Shown here piece after piece: positions 7,276 to 18,475 of a stretch of 37,906 bases of DNA; position 1 is the first letter of the stretch, and every line of letters starts with the position of its first letter. The stretch is from an uncultured Methanosarcinaceae archaeon (GTDB lineage Archaea > Halobacteriota > Methanosarcinia > Methanosarcinales > Methanosarcinaceae). The DNA lies in NCBI GenBank assembly GCA_963721455.1, contig CAVRJG010000030.1:1-37906 (forward strand). Reading direction: 5' to 3'. The notes under the pieces were generated by a model. It searched no databases. It was given only the letters and a program-made list of their open reading frames with translations, and was not told where the DNA came from. The position numbers and the translations under genes were made by a program.

Positions 7276-8994
7276 CCTACTTTCGGCAGGTAAACATATA
7301 GATTAATATAATTAATTTTATATCTCTTTCCTGGTCTTCCCATGGCAGAGAAAAACAGCAGTAGAAGAATTGAATCCTCCTTAAAACGCACAAGGTTCTT
7401 AGGTCACCTTGGCCTTATCGCTGGAGTTTTCAGAGAACTTGAAGTTGACAAACTGATCGACGAGAAACTCCCAAAGGAAAGGGATCATAATGTCCCTCAC
7501 TCAGTCTGCATCCTTGCCATGGTAATCAATGGTCTTGGTTTCATAGGGCAACGTTTGTACCTGTTTCCTGATTTTTTCAAAAACGTTTCTACGGAAAGGC
7601 TCTTTGGAGACAGTGTAACAAGAGAAGACCTGAATCAATATGCTATCGGAGAGACTCTTGATAGAATCGTAAAATACGGCCCTACAAAACTGTTTACGGA
7701 AATTACTCTTCACATTATGAATCGTCTACCTATTCCTGTCCATTGTTTACACGCTGACACTACAAGTGTCAGCGTTTATGGGGATTATGATGACGAAGAA
7801 ACTGAGTCTATTGATATTACTTTTGGAGTTCCCAAAAACGGAAGATGGGATCTCAAACAATTTGTACTAAGCTTGATTGTTAATCAGCATGGGATACCTC
7901 TTTTTATGAATACTCATTCAGGAAATGCTTCAGACAAAAACACAATTCTGGAAGCAATCAAGTCTCTCAAATCGGTTTTAAGACCTGAAAGCAAAGTGTA
8001 CTATGTCGCTGATAGTTCCTTTTACACAGATAATAATCTCAAGAACATGGGAAAGGCATTCTGGATCAGTCGCGTTCCTGCAACAATTAATGAGGCAAAG
8101 GAGTTGCTAACTGCAAATTTGAACCTGAAAATGCTGAAAAGCGATGAGAGATACTCATTTTATCAAACTTTTGTGGAATATGGTGGAGTCAAACAAAAGT
8201 GGGTTTTGTTGCTTTCTCACAAGATGAAAGAGAAGAAAGAGGGAACTCTCGGAAAAAAGATTGAAAAAGAGATTGAAAAAGCAGAAAAGGCTTTTAAAAA
8301 GCTGAAAGGAGAGGACTTTTTCTGCGAAGAGGATGCATTAAAAGCTGCGGAGAAATGGATTCAAGAATTCCCGTCTATTGTGTTTGAAAAAGTAGATTTG
8401 AAAGCCATTAAGAAACGTGAAGAAGGTAAAAGAGGCAGAACTTCAAAAGATGAGAAATTAAATACTTATTACAGGATTGATGGCAGCATAAAGGTTAATA
8501 ACGCTTTTGTTTTGAAAGAAATGGAGAAAATGGGACTTTTCATTCTTGCAAGTAATGATATCAGTATTTCTCCTGAAGAGATGCTAAAGTATTACAAAGG
8601 ACAGGATAACGTAGAAAAAGGATTCAGATTCTTGAAAAGTCATACATTTAGCATATCAAAAGTTTACCTCAAGAATAAAGCAAGAATCGAAGCAGTGACC
8701 ATGATAATGGTTCTCTGCTTAATGATTTATTCAATAGCAGAATGGAAGCTGAGGACAAAATTAGAGGAACAAAATGAAACGGTTCCAGATCAAAAAGGGA
8801 AACCAACAAAAAGACCTACAATGAGATGGATATTTTTCAATTTCCAGGGGATTACAGAACTTATAACTCAGAAAGAAGAGAAAATAGAGTCAGAAATATT
8901 GAATATGGAAGAGATTCACTGGAAGATATTGAGTCTCATGGGGGAGAAATATGAAAATATATATCTCTAATTACGTTAACCTGCCGAATGTAGG
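7276..8994 (+). mobile_element. IS1634-family insertion sequence, intact
   Basis: IRs CCTACTTTCGGCAGGT / ACCTGCCGAATGTAGG; 5-bp target duplication TTATT (7271-7275 and 8995-8999). Confidence 0.92.
7342..8970 (+). CDS. IS1634-family transposase (542 aa)
   Basis: LGHLGLIAG, HADTTSVSVYG, DLKQFVL, VADSSFY and YKGQDNVEKGFRFLK. Confidence 0.93.
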   Translation: MAEKNSSRRIESSLKRTRFLGHLGLIAGVFRELEVDKLIDEKLPKERDHNVPHSVCILAMVINGLGFIGQRLYLFPDFFKNVSTERLFGDSVTREDLNQYAIGETLDRIVKYGPTKLFTEITLHIMNRLPIPVHCLHADTTSVSVYGDYDDEETESIDITFGVPKNGRWDLKQFVLSLIVNQHGIPLFMNTHSGNASDKNTILEAIKSLKSVLRPESKVYYVADSSFYTDNNLKNMGKAFWISRVPATINEAKELLTANLNLKMLKSDERYSFYQTFVEYGGVKQKWVLLLSHKMKEKKEGTLGKKIEKEIEKAEKAFKKLKGEDFFCEEDALKAAEKWIQEFPSIVFEKVDLKAIKKREEGKRGRTSKDEKLNTYYRIDGSIKVNNAFVLKEMEKMGLFILASNDISISPEEMLKYYKGQDNVEKGFRFLKSHTFSISKVYLKNKARIEAVTMIMVLCLMIYSIAEWKLRTKLEEQNETVPDQKGKPTKRPTMRWIFFNFQGITELITQKEEKIESEILNMEEIHWKILSLMGEKYENIYL

Positions 8995-13337: not shown

Positions 13338-14367
13338 GTGTCGAGTCAACAATAAAATGTCGTAAATTTTATATTGTATATTGTTCATAATGAATCCTGG
13401 AGGATTACTTATGAATAGATACACTGTGACACTTACCAAAGATGAACGTGAAGCTCTTTGTGAACTTACCTCAAAGGGCAAACATAGCTCACAAAAAATC
13501 CTCAATGCTCTGATCTTACTTAATTGTGATAAAAGTGAATGGAATGTTAACCATTCAACCAATGAAGAAATCTCACGTATCCTGAATATTAGTATGAGAA
13601 AAATTGACCGTGTTAAGAAACGATTTGTTGAAGAAGGTCTTGAAGTTGCTCTCAACGGGGAAAAAAGAGATCGTATTTATGCTAAAAAAGTTGATGGTGA
13701 TTTTGAAGCCCATTTAGTTGCATTGAGTTGCAGTGAACCCCCTGAAGGTTTTGCAAGGTGGTCTTTGAGATTGTTGGCTGATCAGGCTGTAGAGCTTGGC
13801 TATATCGAGAATATATCTCATGAAACAGTTCGCCGTACTTTAAAAAAACGAAGTCAAACCCTGGCAAAGGAAAGGATGGGTAATTCCCCCAGAACAAAAC
13901 AGTAGCTTTGTTGCAAATATGGAAATGGTTCTGGATGTTTATAAGCGTCCATTTGATCCACGAAATCCTGTTATATGTATGGATGAATCCCCAAAACAAC
14001 TGATTGCAGAAACCAGGGTTCCTGTCCCCTGTTCACCTGGAAAACCAGCCAGGTATGATTACGAATACAAACGTTGTGGAATGTGCAATATATTCCTTGC
14101 CTGTGAACCATTGGCAGGAAAACGAATGGTGAAAATTACTGAAAGAAAAACCAAGCGAGATTGGGCTTGGTTTCTGGAAGAAATTGCACTTCAACAGGAA
14201 AATTCAGATAAAATTACGCTGGTAATGGACAATCTAAACACGCATATTCCAGGATCTCTCTATGAAATATTTCCACCAGAAAAGGCGAAGGCTCTATGGG
14301 ACAGGTTTGAGTTTGTGTACACACCAAAACATGGAAGCTGGTTGAATATGGCAGAGATTGAATTGAA
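13338..14367 (+). mobile_element. IS630-family element, right end lost
   Basis: Begins after a TA target. OrfA starts at 13411 (GGAGG RBS; PPEGFARWSLRLLA), has a slippery TTTAAAAAAAC at about 13839, and OrfB carries CMDE, VMDNLNTH and YTPKHGSWLNMAEIELN. Confidence 0.88.
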
Positions 14368-15235
14368 CCTACTTTCCGCAGGTGCGACAAGAAGCTATAC
14401 TATGAATTGCACCATTCGCTACCTCTTCCATTTGAGGTAATCCTACTGTGACATGCATAAATGGTAACATTTGTGTGTGAAGCTCACAGGACACTATCGA
14501 GAAATCAAGGAACCTGACTTTGGTAATCGGTTAGGATACGAATACTATGAAGAACATAAAGTGAACCATCGTAAGAATCGTGAAGTGGAATAAGCGAAAG
14601 CAGGCTGATACGCTTAACCAAAAGGTACAGAATCAGGCTGTAATGGGTCTGCGGACATTATGGCAAATGGACAAATGATTCTCGGTTTATAGATGGCTTC
14701 TAAGGTATTCACATTATTCGTAGTATGGAACTTGGTAAGCCCTAAATGCTCCCATTATGGGTAGGACTCCCGCGAGGGATAACGATGGCATTGAGGGTAG
14801 AGGATTCAGTAAAAAGCGAATGCCAATCTGTAATGGATTGGATAGAGGTTCAAACTTTGCCTCAATCCGAAAGGATGCAGACTTACTGATGGTGTTTTCT
14901 TGTGTGAATGGAAACAAACCTACAAATGTAAGATACTCAACGACACCAATAGGTGAGAGGCTTACAGACAATTATGTTAGTGGGCTGTTATCCGGAACAC
15001 AAAATCAGTTATGCAAATAACTGGTGCCTGATACAGAAAGGGTTTGAAAACACTCGAGCCGTATGAAGGGAAACTTTCAAGTACGGTTCCTAGGGGAGAA
15101 AGGAGGAGTAATCCTCCCTACTTACCCGACATGTCTTCAAAAAACTGATATTTTTCTTCCGTCATAAAAACCCACATACAAAACTGATAAACTAGTCAAC
15201 AAAAATGATACAAAAGTGAAATTTAGTGATATTTA
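14368..15235. mobile_element. IS1634-like terminal fragment hosting the group II intron
   Basis: CCTACTTTCCGCAG (14368-14381) is 13/14 identical to the IS1634 IR at 7276, and IS630 homology stops exactly there. The distal boundary is uncertain. Confidence 0.6.
14382..15130 (+). ncRNA. ORF-less group II intron (749 nt, probably IIB / CL1 class)
   Basis: 5' GTGCG; domain V GAGCCGTATGAAGGGAAACTTTCAAGTACGGTTC (15056-15089, AGC triad); domain VI with a bulged A ending CCCGAC; EBS1 CTGCGGA in a stem-loop at 14649-14655 is complementary to the 5' exon end TCCGCAG. Confidence 0.93.
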
Positions 15236-15259
15236 GAGCCTATCCCTTAGTGATACTTA

Positions 15260-15344
15260 GAGCCTATCCGAAAAGTGTTGTTATCTACTTTAATATTTAT
15301 TGTAACTTTTACAACATGCTATTATTGACTTTTCGGATAGGCTC
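15260..15344. mobile_element. MITE (85 bp) with IS5-type ends
   Basis: Perfect 17-bp IR GAGCCTATCCGAAAAGT / ACTTTTCGGATAGGCTC; TTA target duplication. Confidence 0.9.
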
Positions 15345-15410
15345 TTAATCAGGTAAATTATTGGTGTAAAAATATCAAAATTACAGGAACTGCAAGGATA
15401 ATGCTCTCTT

Positions 15411-15923
15411 TCATTTGGATTTGTCCTTCCCCTCTTGAGTAAGGGAAAGATTCAGAACTTTTTCAAATAACTTTTCATCATCATCACGGAATCCAACAAC
15501 TCTGGCCTGGGATCTGTCCGTGCAGACTTCCCCGTTCTCCCGCATGTAGATGTATGTTCCATTTCCAACACCCACAATCACAAAGGAGTCAGGAATGGTT
15601 TCTACTTCGAAATATTCTGCAATTTCGGGATTCTTGTTTGCATCTACGGACGCGATTGTGGCTTTTCCTCCGTATTCGGCTGCCAGTTTTTCAATGGTGG
15701 GCTTCATAGACCGGCACGTTGGACACCACCAGGTTCCTATTTTCACAAAGACTGGGCCATTCTGGAGGGATGCGTTTATCTGTTCCAGCTGGGTTACCTT
15801 TATAGCAGTGTTATTCTCCAAACTTCCATCAGAGTTTGTAGAATTTTCCTGAGCTTTATCGGTACAGCCAGCCGTAAAAAACACAGCTGCAAGCAGGATC
15901 AATAATATTACTAATTTTTTCAT
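15411..15923 (-). CDS. Thioredoxin-family lipoprotein
   Basis: Lipobox FTAGC after a signal peptide; WCPTC active site; cis-Pro TIP. Confidence 0.88.
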   Translation of the reverse strand: MKKLVILLILLAAVFFTAGCTDKAQENSTNSDGSLENNTAIKVTQLEQINASLQNGPVFVKIGTWWCPTCRSMKPTIEKLAAEYGGKATIASVDANKNPEIAEYFEVETIPDSFVIVGVGNGTYIYMRENGEVCTDRSQARVVGFRDDDEKLFEKVLNLSLTQEGKDKSK

Positions 15924-16803
15924 GTTGGTCTTCCATCCCCATACGATTAATGTTTCAAAATTCGTAAATGCGAATATATTTGTGATATTCAGAGCAATTA
16001 ATTTTTAAGATTATTTGGATTAAACATCCTCAGTTTTAGACTAATGAATCTAAATTTAGATCACTCTTGAGCATTATACATAGACCACCGGGAAATAGAT
16101 AAATTCCGTCGAATAAATTTTCCTTACAATTAATACTTTGGTGGTTAGTGGTCCATCAATAATGAGTTGATGTTTGTCCAGAAAATTCACATACTTGCAC
16201 TCTGCATCTCATTTTCCTTGCTGTGCAGGTTTTGGTTCTCGGTATGCAGGTAAGCTTAGAAAACGAATGCAGTTAAACAAAGTGCATTATAAGATGAAAC
16301 CTCAGCCAGCTAATGGAGCACGACCCTGAAATTGGTAAAAATAGAAAAAGCCTGCGTCTTACAGGTTTCATGAGATGTAAAACACAGGAGGTTGCAATTA
16401 AGGTATTAACATATAGCAATACGCAGACTCCGAATTGGTGCAGCGGTAAGCAGTGTTCAAACTGCTGTAGCAGCTATCCACATTTAAAAGAATAAAAAGT
16501 AAAAGGATACAAATAACCAATTCAATAGCCGTTGATTTGTCCATACTTCCCCCTATATACTTGTTTTCTATAGTTTTCCCCCTAACTCTCCCCTTAGAAT
16601 CTTCCTATCTTACTACACACTTCAACTATTAAAAAATATACATTTTATAATTACTTATATAGTTTTTGACAAATATAAAAACCGCAAAAAGACATCAAGA
16701 ATGCTAAAAAAGATTTTTATTGTCTTTTTTGAAGTTGGTGGCGGAATAGGTGTATTTGATTCTAATTTTCAAATAAAGCATATTCTGCTCTTTCCCGGGC
16801 TCT

Positions 16804-18054
16804 TCAAAAAAGAGTTCTCAGGAATGTTCCAAAGGCTTTCATAAGCCTCAGGGAGTTTCCTGAAAACATGAGTTTCTTCATAAGGATAGAAGGGTGGTCC
16901 ATGTCTCCATACTCAGTGATGGTGTTGAGAATAGATGGGGAATTTAGAGAGCCTATAAGGTCGTTCAACTGCCTGTCTTCCAGCTTCCCCATGTAGTCAT
17001 GAATTTTCATGCCTATTTCAAGCTCTTTTCCAAGCCCTTTCCGCCAGAGTTGATCGTATTCGGAAAGCCGTTTTGCAGAAGTATCCCCCTCAAGGGCAGC
17101 GTCTGCTGCAACTTTCCCAGCTATTTTTGCCGCAAAAGCCCCTGTATATACTCCGCCCCCTGACGTCGGTTTCGCCTGCCCGGCAGCGTCCCCTACCAGC
17201 ATAACGCTGTCAGAAACCGTTTTTTCCGGAGGGCCAATCGGGATTCCCCCGACTACAAAGTCAAGCATACCTCCTGAATACCTGGATTTTACGTGAGGGT
17301 TGGAGTGAAGGAATTTTTCGAGGTAAGAAAGGGGAGAACTTTCTTCCTGACCGTTTTTCCAGGCAAGCCCAGGTTCGAGGGCAAGCCCAATTCTTGAGAT
17401 TTTTTCGTCAACTGGCACGGCCCAGGCAAAAAAACCAGGAGCGGAAGAGCCAGGAAATAGTTCAACAAAGTCACTGTCGTCCGAGGCATAAGGAGCTTCG
17501 ATCTGGATGCCTGGAAGCACACGGGCAGGCTTTTCAAGGCCTGCATAGCTGGCTATCCGGCTTTTTACCCCATCTGCCCCTATCACGACGGATGCACATA
17601 TCGTTTCAAGCCGGCCGTTTTTGATTACCCTGAGTTTTGCAGGAGAACTTTTCTTTCCTCCCTTACCGGCTTCCGGATTCTCTTTTTCAAATCCTACAGC
17701 CCTTGTCCTGAGAGAGAGTTCAACGCCTTCCTCCACAGCCATTACTGCAAGGGCGCGGTCAAAGTTTTTCCGCGAGACCACATATGCTTTTGTCTGCCTC
17801 CCGTCTATTGGCAGATGCTGCCCGTCAGGAGCGTGTACAAAAGCCCCGCGCACCGAATTGAATACAAATTCATCCGAAGGCTTGAGTTCGCACTCTGCAA
17901 CAGCTCTCGTGCTCAAAAGCCCGGTACAGCCTACAGGTGACCCTATGGAAGGATGCTCTTCGAGCAGGAGGACCTTTGCCCCATTCAGGGCTGCATGGCG
18001 AGCAGCAGTGGAACCCACAGGGCCGGCTCCAACCACAACAACATCGTACTTCAT
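16804..18054 (-). CDS. Geranylgeranyl reductase family FAD-dependent oxidoreductase
   Basis: YDVVVVGAGPVG, VIGADG and LVGDAAGQAKPTSGGG. Confidence 0.9.
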   Translation of the reverse strand: MKYDVVVVGAGPVGSTAARHAALNGAKVLLLEEHPSIGSPVGCTGLLSTRAVAECELKPSDEFVFNSVRGAFVHAPDGQHLPIDGRQTKAYVVSRKNFDRALAVMAVEEGVELSLRTRAVGFEKENPEAGKGGKKSSPAKLRVIKNGRLETICASVVIGADGVKSRIASYAGLEKPARVLPGIQIEAPYASDDSDFVELFPGSSAPGFFAWAVPVDEKISRIGLALEPGLAWKNGQEESSPLSYLEKFLHSNPHVKSRYSGGMLDFVVGGIPIGPPEKTVSDSVMLVGDAAGQAKPTSGGGVYTGAFAAKIAGKVAADAALEGDTSAKRLSEYDQLWRKGLGKELEIGMKIHDYMGKLEDRQLNDLIGSLNSPSILNTITEYGDMDHPSILMKKLMFSGNSLRLMKAFGTFLRTLF

Positions 18055-18475
18055 ACCGTATCACCTTCGAGGATAGCGTTTGCCTTAGCAGGAAGCTTAA
18101 TATATTCATAATTCATAAATATAATTACAATTACATATTAAATATATTACTAAAGTGGGGTTTTAATCAAAGAAATTGCCTTTCAAGTGACCTCTAAATG
18201 ATGTTTCAAATCATCTTTAAACTGGTCTTTAAAGTGACCTTTTAAATGAAATTTAAATTGTCTCTAAATCGGTCATTGGGGTAATCTTTTGAGTGCTTGC
18301 CTGGTTTTTATATCGCGTAAAATATCAGGCGAGATTTTCAGGCCCCAACGTCTTCTTAACTTTCCGTACTTTCACAATCTTGATATATCGATAAACGTAT
18401 CCATGCTGAGACTGAAGGTAAAAACTGAACGATCAAATACTTAACCATTTCTTCGAATCACTGACCAGGGTTTCC

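Follow-up and report, generated by a model that had tools for sequence, protein, structure and literature searches.

Organization of the intron-bearing locus

A group II intron lies in the terminal inverted repeat (IR) of an IS1634-type transposable element within the DNA analysed here, a 37,906-nt stretch of contig CAVRJG010000030.1 from an uncultured Methanosarcinaceae archaeon. We refer to this whole stretch as the window, and the features of this locus and of the intact IS at 7276-8994 are on the plus strand. The upstream neighbor is a transposase gene of the insertion sequence (IS) family IS630 (13381-14367; Pfam HTH_32/DDE_3, NCBIfam NF033545), which consists of two open reading frames (ORFs; 13381-13905 and 13919 onward) and breaks off at 14367. 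The gene ends here with ATTGAA (14362-14367), a 6-nt target-site duplication (TSD) left by the IS1634-family element on its insertion. The duplication is followed by nt 1-14 of an IS1634-family IR tip (14368-14381), the C-type variant CCTACTTTCCGCAG, which forms the 5' exon. The intron occupies 14382-15130. The 3' exon (15131-15165) comprises IR nt 15 onward and the subterminal T-rich block of an IS end or of the end of a miniature inverted-repeat transposable element (MITE). As a side observation, the IS630-family transposase, when taken as 13381-14440, is split into the same two ORFs in the window copy.

The window also contains an intact IS1634-family IS (7276-8994), whose G-type tips are unoccupied. 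Its transposase gene (7342-8970) matches NF033559 with 390 bits and encodes DUF4277 and DDE_Tnp_1. The left end, IRL, starts with CCTACTTTCGGCAG (7276-7289) and the right end, IRR, with CCTACATTCGGCAG (8981-8994); the IR is about 23 bp long, with 20 of 23 positions matching.

The intron comprises 749 nt (GTGCGAC...CCCGAC), contains all six domains and is bounded in the window by ...gaattgaaCCTACTTTCCGCAG/GTGCGACAAG...CTTACCCGAC/ATGTCTTC (slashes mark junctions here and below). Its 5' end, GTGCG at 14382, agrees with the conserved GUGYG, and its 3' end, ..GAC at 15130, agrees with the conserved AY. An Rfam search of the window returned RF02012 (D1-D4) at 14420-14569 with 63.5 bits (gathering threshold 34) and RF00029 (domains V and VI) at 15054-15130 with 63.5 bits (gathering threshold 40). 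These were the only Rfam matches in the 37.9 kb, so the window holds one intron only. A consensus fold was derived from six ORF-less copies representing five genomes; of its 240 pairs, 43 show compensatory changes. RF00029 and the paired columns of this fold place domain V at 15056-15089 and domain VI up to 15128, ahead of the terminal AC at 15130. In the fold, A15124 (column 754) is unpaired in domain VI and is likely the branch point. The intron is presumed to be self-splicing.

The intron lacks a reverse transcriptase (RT) ORF. Only a remnant of the reading frame for the intron-encoded protein (IEP), about the first 28 codons, remains in domain IV (14889-14969; intron nt 508-588). Residues 1-28 of the 497-aa IEP resident in this genome align there with 12/28 identities (tblastn, E 0.018), at the syntenic position. 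Furthermore, the intron can be aligned to its RT-bearing relatives at nt 1-588 and 639-732 only, which together with the IEP remnant indicates a domain IV deletion derivative. Thus, the element is an ORF-less, non-autonomous group II intron with RT-encoding relatives. An earlier note, made from the sequence alone, had described a complete ORF-less ribozyme of this length with an IEP stub around the peptide NVRYSTTPIGERLTD, and this description holds; the peptide is part of the remnant.

The end occupied by the intron belongs to an IS1634-type element

The flanks of the intron consist of an IS630 gene and the end of an IS1634-type element; they are not the group II intron sequence that nesting in a twintron would predict. 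The junction between the two elements was defined by comparison with intact IS630 copies. These read gagattgaATTGAAtgtacttacagg, while the window reads gagattgaATTGAA/CCTACTTTCCGCAG/intron. Because the intact copies differ from the window beyond 14367, the IS630 part ends there, and 14368-14381 is foreign to it. A BLAST alignment to IS630 had run on to 14374 and so had included CCTACTT (14368-14374); the intact copies read TGTACTT, and the 5/7 agreement is a coincidence. The 14-mer at 14368-14381 matches IRL of the window IS (7276-7289) at 13 of 14 positions, the same count that had been noted earlier, and also resembles IRR (8981-8994). A search with the 14-mer gave five matches at up to two mismatches, against 0.86 expected. 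On the 3' side, the exon follows other C-type ends over its first 35 nt or so and diverges beyond.

No mate tip, TSD or subterminal motif was detected in 15131-19000, no mate end elsewhere in the window, and the remainder of the IS630 element was not found in the window either. The 3' remainder of IS630 is located at C52:225385 of the same genome, where it starts with ATTGAA directly after an IS1634-family IS end, CTGCGGAAGGTCAG. The mate end and the TSD ATTGAA of the window IS end are therefore at C52:225371-225390, on another contig, and the ligated exon proposed in the earlier note is confirmed as an IS end. The opposite end of that C52 IS (C52:222930) holds an identical intron copy. The sequences on both contigs indicate that an IS1634-type element inserted into IS630 with a 6-bp duplication and that the intron sits in this element's end. 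The joining of the two loci through identical 749-nt introns reflects either recombination between copies or an assembly cross-over.

The intron family resides at the tips of ISs and MITEs

The genome (G000; 73 contigs, 3.94 Mb, 42.5% G+C) encodes mcrA and contains 16 full-length members of the intron family by BLAST. Seven ORF-less copies, the window's included, are 100% identical; other ORF-less copies are 99.9, 97 and 96% (one each), 91% (two) and 80% (one) identical. Three copies encode an RT and are about 83% identical over nt 1-588. Infernal found 18 domain V matches in the genome, namely the 16 family members and two other introns. The latter are at C45:33112-33186 and C35:15037-15113, both on the minus strand (loci L033 and L034), with domain V scores of 57.7 and 51.8 bits; the C35 intron also matches RF02012 and shares 68% identity with a part of D1.

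Fifteen of the 16 family copies are directly behind CCnnCnTTC[C/G]GCAG, and the sequence upstream of this 14-mer is unrelated between loci. The sole exception, on C49, is also the only copy at an unrelated site, and it has a different EBS1 (exon-binding site 1) that pairs 7/7 with its own flank. The same tip, without or with an intron, ends 27 elements that have perfect 6-bp TSDs, as found by a search for inverted tips with matching flanks. These include empty MITEs of 233-237 bp (8), 248-251 bp (3), 258-260 bp (2) and 277-278 bp (11), one interrupted IS of 3 kb, and two MITEs that are occupied, by an ORF-less intron at C71:26844-27844 and by a 2.1-kb RT intron at C15:59908-62310. Counted over these 27 elements, the TSDs are 85% A+T. 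TSDs of 5-6 bp are typical for the IS1634 family. The targets thus belong to this family: their ISs carry transposases that match the family model (NF033559, 390 bits for the window IS and 183.5 + 199.6 bits for the split gene of the C52 IS), terminal IRs of about 23 bp and a short TSD. G-type tips occur with a window-like transposase group, and C-type tips with a group just 46% identical to it.

The insertion is always 14 nt from the tip and reads inward. In full ISs, the intron is in the transposase-distal IR of two elements (C52a and C25/C12); in MITE families it is found in either end type. Judged by this sequence pattern, the same position in element IRs and the inward orientation, the insertion behavior is like that of RmInt2, which is compared below. 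Targeting of multicopy IS1634-type ends, as proposed in the earlier note, is thus borne out by 15 of 16 copies here and by closely related introns from elsewhere in the genus.

As a separate observation, C59:1455-1860 contains a 384-nt tandem duplication of genomic flank, IR tip and the first 166 intron nt, located directly upstream of a full intron.

Exon-binding sites covary with the target

The pairing partners of the window copy all lie in the IR tip. EBS1, CUGCGGA (14649-14655), lies in the terminal loop that closes the stem GGCUGUAAUG/CAUUAUGGC of the consensus fold, as had been placed by the earlier note, and pairs 7/7 with TCCGCAG, the intron-binding site IBS1 (14375-14381; IR nt 8-14). 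EBS2, AAGUGG (14583-14588), pairs 6/6, one G.U pair included, with CTACTT, the IBS2 (14369-14374; IR nt 2-7). A candidate EBS3 is the U at 14690 in an internal loop of D1, with the first base of the 3' exon, A at 15131, as its partner.

We compared these pairings in 32 intron copies from this and other genomes. EBS1/IBS1 pairing is 7/7 in 26 of them, including 16/16 of this genome, and involves at least six different combinations. The six misses consist of a one-base boundary offset (L005), four cases of 6/7 and one of 3/7. EBS2/IBS2 pairing is 6/6 in 17 of the 32 copies, and the two sites covary: AAGUGG/CCACUU, AAGCAG/CUGCUU, AAGUAC/GUACUU, AAAACC/GGUUUU and ACUUUU/GAAAGU. Introns score 11-13 of 13 pairs with their cognate flanks and 3-12 with non-cognate flanks; the high non-cognate scores are those between C and G types, which are few positions apart. 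The ORF-less C-type copies carry CUGCGGA and AAGUGG and are behind CC(C/U)ACUU-UCCGCAG, reading ..CCGCAG/A. The RT copies carry CUGCCGA and AAGCAG and are behind CUGCUU-UCGGCAG. The junction ..CGGCAG/G is found in the three RT-encoding copies and in two decayed ones. In more distant relatives, here and in other genomes, the EBS pairs are different again, and each fits its own flank.

Of the two EBS2 candidates put forward in the earlier note, AAGUGG was retained, since it covaries with IBS2 across target types. The other, AAAGCAGG (14597-14604), shows no covariation and reads AAAACAGG in the RT copies targeting CCTGCTTT. For EBS3, G/A at 14576, on the internal loop's 5' strand, does not fit, and T/C at 14690 does: T occurs with A at position +1 in 15 of 16 copies, and C with G in 5 of 5. 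This support for the candidate EBS3 is modest, as there are two states only, perhaps resulting from one evolutionary change.

The positions read by the RNA, -13 to +1, are all within the IR (nt 2-15). Positions -15 and beyond are outside the IS and variable, which leaves little room for sequence-specific recognition by the protein. This arrangement argues that the protein adds little such recognition and that target choice may be almost purely a matter of RNA pairing.

A side observation concerns another repeat family, present at window 12329 and at seven other genomic sites, that reads ..AATATTTCCGCAG/tttgagactataattc.. and has tgtggtgcaaaaat as a conserved segment upstream. This family carries the IBS1 heptamer, but its IBS2 does not match (2/6), and none of its copies is occupied by the intron.

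Putative helper reverse transcriptase and probable intron class

Each of the three RT copies keeps an intact 497-aa ORF with RVT_N, RVT_1 and GIIM (TIGR04416, 353.7 bits). These are RT-encoding relatives of the kind that the earlier note had expected to act in trans. A domain search of the 497-aa IEP did not reveal an HNH domain. Among solved structures, chain C of 6ME0 is nearest (E 1.4e-151, 508.7 bits), and the IEP aligns to it only up to residue 479 of 562. The scores were 153.1 bits against LtrA and 113-145 bits against IIC RTs. The maturase/RT in 6ME0 is presumably the TeI4h protein of Thermosynechococcus elongatus. With the class label of 6ME0 taken from PMC2882425, the IEP appears to be of chloroplast-like (CL)/IIB1 type; it is without the endonuclease (En) part. 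It was not placed in the class D (IIB3) lineage, as 6ME0 was the closest solved IEP in a returned PDB list that held no class D structure. On the basis of these relatives, we assume that the ORF-less copies are mobilized in trans by their RT-encoding siblings. RT copies of C-type occur in other genomes (L007 and L009).

Occupancy of the tips tracks IBS2 complementarity

We compared occupied and empty ends. Among C-type ends, 8/9 with a perfect (6/6) IBS2 are occupied, versus 1/15 with 4-5/6 (Fisher p 1e-4). With singletons assigned by eye included, the numbers are 8/11 versus 1/17 (p 4e-4). These p-values are optimistic because MITE copies are kin.

The same features could be read in another way, in which the intron was captured once in a MITE or IS, the composite was spread by the IS1634-family transposase, and the 14-mer is simply the transposon's own end. 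The RT intron at two C15 loci (C15a and C15b) would suit this view. It is in one MITE subfamily at both, with different upstream flanks, and the two MITE parts agree at 172/175 positions, against only 154-155/175 with the single empty copy, which fits composite transposition or duplication. The intact TSDs on both occupied TSD-flanked MITEs are compatible with either order of events. (The far end of C15b is truncated, and the TSD of the C19 copy is mismatched.) However, near-identical introns are in mutually dissimilar surroundings: the seven identical copies and the 99.9% copy have eight different 3' backbones, and the RT introns, about 99.8% identical, are in two different MITE families, the second one on C19. 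In addition, EBS1, EBS2 and the candidate EBS3 covary with the flanks, and occupancy tracks IBS2 complementarity. Transport as cargo predicts none of these, and we consider it very improbable as the explanation of the family.

The unoccupied full-length ISs bear on a second alternative, which extends a suggestion of the earlier note. It holds that an IS end split by the intron would be disabled and that IR variants, such as G at IR position 10, are selected escape mutants. The intron divides the IR of about 23 bp at 14/9 and plausibly parts the tip, where cleavage occurs, from the inner portion bound by the transposase. The only occupied full IS, C52:222930-225384, has a perfect tip and a frameshifted transposase. 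Two related copies of the same group, at C52:~173866-175600 and C53:~19800-21500, are 99.7% identical, contain one long transposase match each and are unoccupied. Their left tip, CAGACTTTCCGCAT, ends with ..CCGCAT, and the final T breaks IBS1 at position -1. Furthermore, the most abundant tip, CCTACTTTCGGCAG, is matched 13/13 solely by the C25/C12 intron type, the 5' end of which has decayed (ATTCG). These points would favor such an arms race. Against this, G-type ends are not free of introns but carry five copies with a compensated EBS1 (CUGCCGA) and candidate EBS3 (C). The transposases of the C-tip and G-tip groups are only 46% identical, so that the difference is old. Together, these two findings speak for lineage divergence rather than point escape, and the proposed escape origin of the G variants was not upheld. 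Moreover, the sample of full-length ISs is tiny (nine transposase loci). An arms race of this kind therefore seems quite unlikely.

Observations that weigh against homing into IR tips

Several observations are difficult to reconcile with a family that homes into IR tips by RNA pairing and trans-acting RT, and we collect them here. First, well-matched G-type ends are often empty. Despite a perfect match, 11 ends with CCTGCTTTCGGCAG are empty and 3 occupied, and 0/35 ends with CCTACTTTCGGCAG are occupied. The many empty sites with a perfect match imply that homing is inefficient, recent or extinct. Second, some 3' flanks do not fit. The introns at C8:88311 and C13:39413 have a perfect 5' IR tip, and the DNA on their 3' side is not IS interior. 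It is single-copy DNA at C8 and another repeat from nt 32 at C13 (2/10 C-type 3' junctions). Similarly, the window 3' exon keeps only its short stretch of IS-like sequence (about 35 nt), which a simple model does not explain. Third, an RT-encoding intron with a C-type EBS1 was not found in this assembly, and the resident IEP comes from an intron that is only about 83% identical over D1-D3. Fourth, no contigs joining 14381 to 15131 (which would read ..TTCCGCAG/ATGT.. if spliced) were found in four public runs, three RNA libraries and one DNA run; this search is uninformative, since the locus-specific exon pair may not exist there, the RNA libraries may hold DNA, and exons differ between organisms.

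Finally, the assembly resembles a metagenome-assembled genome. C44 (~154600 onward) and C71:26844-27844 have the same MITE and agree fully over 300 nt of upstream flank, and thus represent one locus. The intron is of the 100% type in C44 and is the 97% variant in C71; C44 then turns abruptly to high-GC, foreign-looking coding sequence. These features indicate a chimeric contig end in C44 and a strain mixture. Repeat collapse may likewise have produced the 100% identity seen among copies and the way in which 5' and 3' flanks are paired across introns.

In the extreme, the family could be immobile now, and the apparent burst of identical copies could be an artefact of a collapsed 749-nt repeat. 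The chimerism and the duplicate loci, the inconsistent flank pairing (the window IS end and its mate on different contigs, and the C19 copy without a matching TSD) and the number of perfect targets that are empty are all consistent with this. On the other hand, the junctions are real and distinct, and the ribozyme and the three IEP ORFs are intact. Variants at 91-97% identity were assembled separately, which shows that any collapse was not total. The occupation of 8/9 perfect C-type sites indicates that homing was efficient in the past. We therefore regard a family of fossils as unlikely.

A proposed model for homing into IR tips

Taken together, we favor the explanation, with a probability of roughly 0.85, that the homing site of this intron is the IR tip of IS1634-family ISs and MITEs, that RT is supplied in trans and that sub-lineages have been retargeted. 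The intron would belong to a non-autonomous ORF-less group II lineage of IIB/chloroplast-like type, with the outer 14-15 bp of the terminal IR of IS1634-family ISs and their MITE derivatives as its homing site. The excised intron RNA would read IR positions 2-15 by pairing only, through 6 nt of EBS2, 7 nt of EBS1 and 1 nt of EBS3, and would enter by reverse splicing at the boundary of IR nt 14 and 15, in the inward direction. The DNA copy would then be made by an RT/maturase that RT-encoding siblings of the intron provide in trans. Priming would probably be by nascent DNA at replication forks, since the IEP has no endonuclease domain. Sub-lineages would have retargeted EBS1, EBS2 and EBS3 to different IR variants, and the window copy would have entered an IS end that was already inserted in the IS630 transposase gene.

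A more elaborate picture would be a four-tier stack of parasites, in which transposases move MITEs, RT introns home into the tips, ORF-less introns borrow the RT, and the introns act as a brake on ISs and MITEs, the tips of which diversify in response. If so, intron sub-lineages would continually retarget EBS1, EBS2 and EBS3 after the IR variants, and split ends would be dead for transposition. The C8 and C13 introns and the window 3' exon could then be scars left where the transposase acted aberrantly on split ends. We find this picture doubtful and offer it only tentatively.

Distribution beyond this genome

Intron matches were found in 46/59 genomes of the genus. Among 16 5' junctions from other genomes, 10 are behind IR-type tips, and 6 (identity of 80% or less) are at other sites; in genome G001, copies are behind (C)TGACTTTCCGCAG. 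The exact junction TTCSGCAG/GTGCGACAAG is present in 17/284 genomes of the order, versus 0 for the reversed control. It was detected in 15/59 genomes of the genus, in 2/6 of a second genus and in 0 of the other 29 genera sampled. The count is highest in this genome (14), and three complete genomes (G003, G005 and G058) carry the junction.

The intron (~14364-15135) is covered by contigs from soil/sediment RNA libraries and from a freshwater DNA run, and these contigs have other flanks, departing from the window sequence at ~14366. One 3' loose end among these public-run contigs resembles an IS end.

Relatives at 80% identity or less (L006, L011 and L027; C49:4646; L018, L019 and L024) are at other recurrent sites with matching EBS1/EBS2. 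The first of these sites reads ..GTACTTTCATATC / ..CACTTTCATGCC, with an inverted copy nearby. The second reads ..GTGTAnCnnAAGTTCTGTA(A) and in C49 is preceded by TTACAGAAC, possibly forming a hairpin.

A small palindromic repeat element is found downstream of the intron, at window 15223-15349. Two 23-nt units in tandem (TTAGTGATAyTTAGAGCCTATCC) come first, and a perfect inverted repeat of 18 nt, AGAGCCTATCCGAAAAGT / ACTTTTCGGATAGGCTCT with its arms 51 nt apart, comes after them. Parts of the element occur on at least 10 other contigs. In the RNA libraries X11 and X16, contigs over 15244-15375 have a summed depth above that of the intron.

Comparison with known group II introns

RmInt2 of S. 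meliloti homes into both IRs of ISRm17, with a target from -14 to +1; its IEP is without En, identical copies occur within a genome, and IBS2 pairing is relaxed (PMC4615759, PMC5894124). Homing into the IR of an IS has thus already been published for RmInt2/ISRm17 (PMC4615759), and the novelty implied by the earlier note, which had cited homing into intron ORFs as the known behavior, falls away. The present family resembles RmInt2 in its EBS/IBS-recognized target in IS IRs, two opposite sites per element, an En-less IEP, identical copies and tolerance of an imperfectly paired IBS2. RmInt2 is bacterial, of class D/IIB3 and RT-encoding, whereas the introns described here are in a methanogenic archaeon, have an IEP closest to a protein of CL/IIB1 type and are mostly ORF-less. 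In addition, MITEs are major targets here, and several sub-lineages appear to be retargeted to IR variants. The RmInt2 IEP reads distal 5'-exon bases at -20 to -15, whereas here everything beyond -14 is outside the IS and unrelated between copies.

RmInt1 has its natural homing site in ISRm2011-2, a member of the IS630 family, is En-less, and blocks the spread of the IS by its insertion (PMC5894124). Our family likewise is En-less and has a multicopy IS as its homing site. The RmInt1 target is within the transposase gene; here the target is the IR, and the IS630 element of the window appears to be just a bystander hit by the IS1634-type element.

ORF-less and RT-encoding introns of Methanosarcina acetivorans and mazei were reportedly described by Dai and Zimmerly in 2003. 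Such introns show nested homing, with sequences of other introns as the sites (Zimmerly and Semper 2015, PMC4424553). The present family is similar in being archaeal, in combining ORF-less and RT-encoding members, in site-specific homing and in having flanking exons without host genes. The published Methanosarcina pattern, as summarized there, is nesting in introns, whereas the window copy is in an IS1634-family IR and is not nested. A search of the full-text literature gave no description of Methanosarcina-type introns in IS1634 IRs; older primary papers, supplements or the intron database may list them.

The TeI3/TeI4 introns of T. elongatus (Mohr et al. 2010) are of CL/IIB1 type and include ORF-less forms that arose by deletion of about 1.5 kb of domain IV. 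The ORF-less introns are mobilized by sibling IEPs, the families are set by diverged EBSs, other mobile elements are preferred as insertion sites (family F4 is at a conserved ISEL1 site), and target recognition is almost wholly by RNA pairing (PMC2882425). Domain IV deletion derivatives, EBS-defined families, insertion into ISs and recognition that appears to rely on RNA pairing are common to both systems. In T. elongatus, the IS target is internal to an IS200-family element, the TeI4h IEP retains the En domain and the host is a thermophilic bacterium; here the target is the terminal IR, the En domain is absent and the host is a methanogen.

Several uses would follow from homing into IR tips. 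With its 14 recognized positions all inside the IS, the family would be a clean natural case of near-pure target choice by RNA pairing, and it offers an internal series of retargeted sub-lineages. It would be material for studying whether introns restrain transposons, how ORF-less introns are mobilized in archaea and how methanogen genomes are reshuffled by identical 749-nt repeats. Annotators of these genomes should check MITEs and IS1634-type ends for introns of 0.75-2.1 kb before labelling them 'truncated'. Homing into IR tips, documented so far for one bacterial class D intron, would extend to archaea, to a CL-like lineage and to MITEs. Compared with the systems above, the family is an archaeal, CL-like, largely ORF-less and MITE-targeting example of the already known behavior of homing into IRs.

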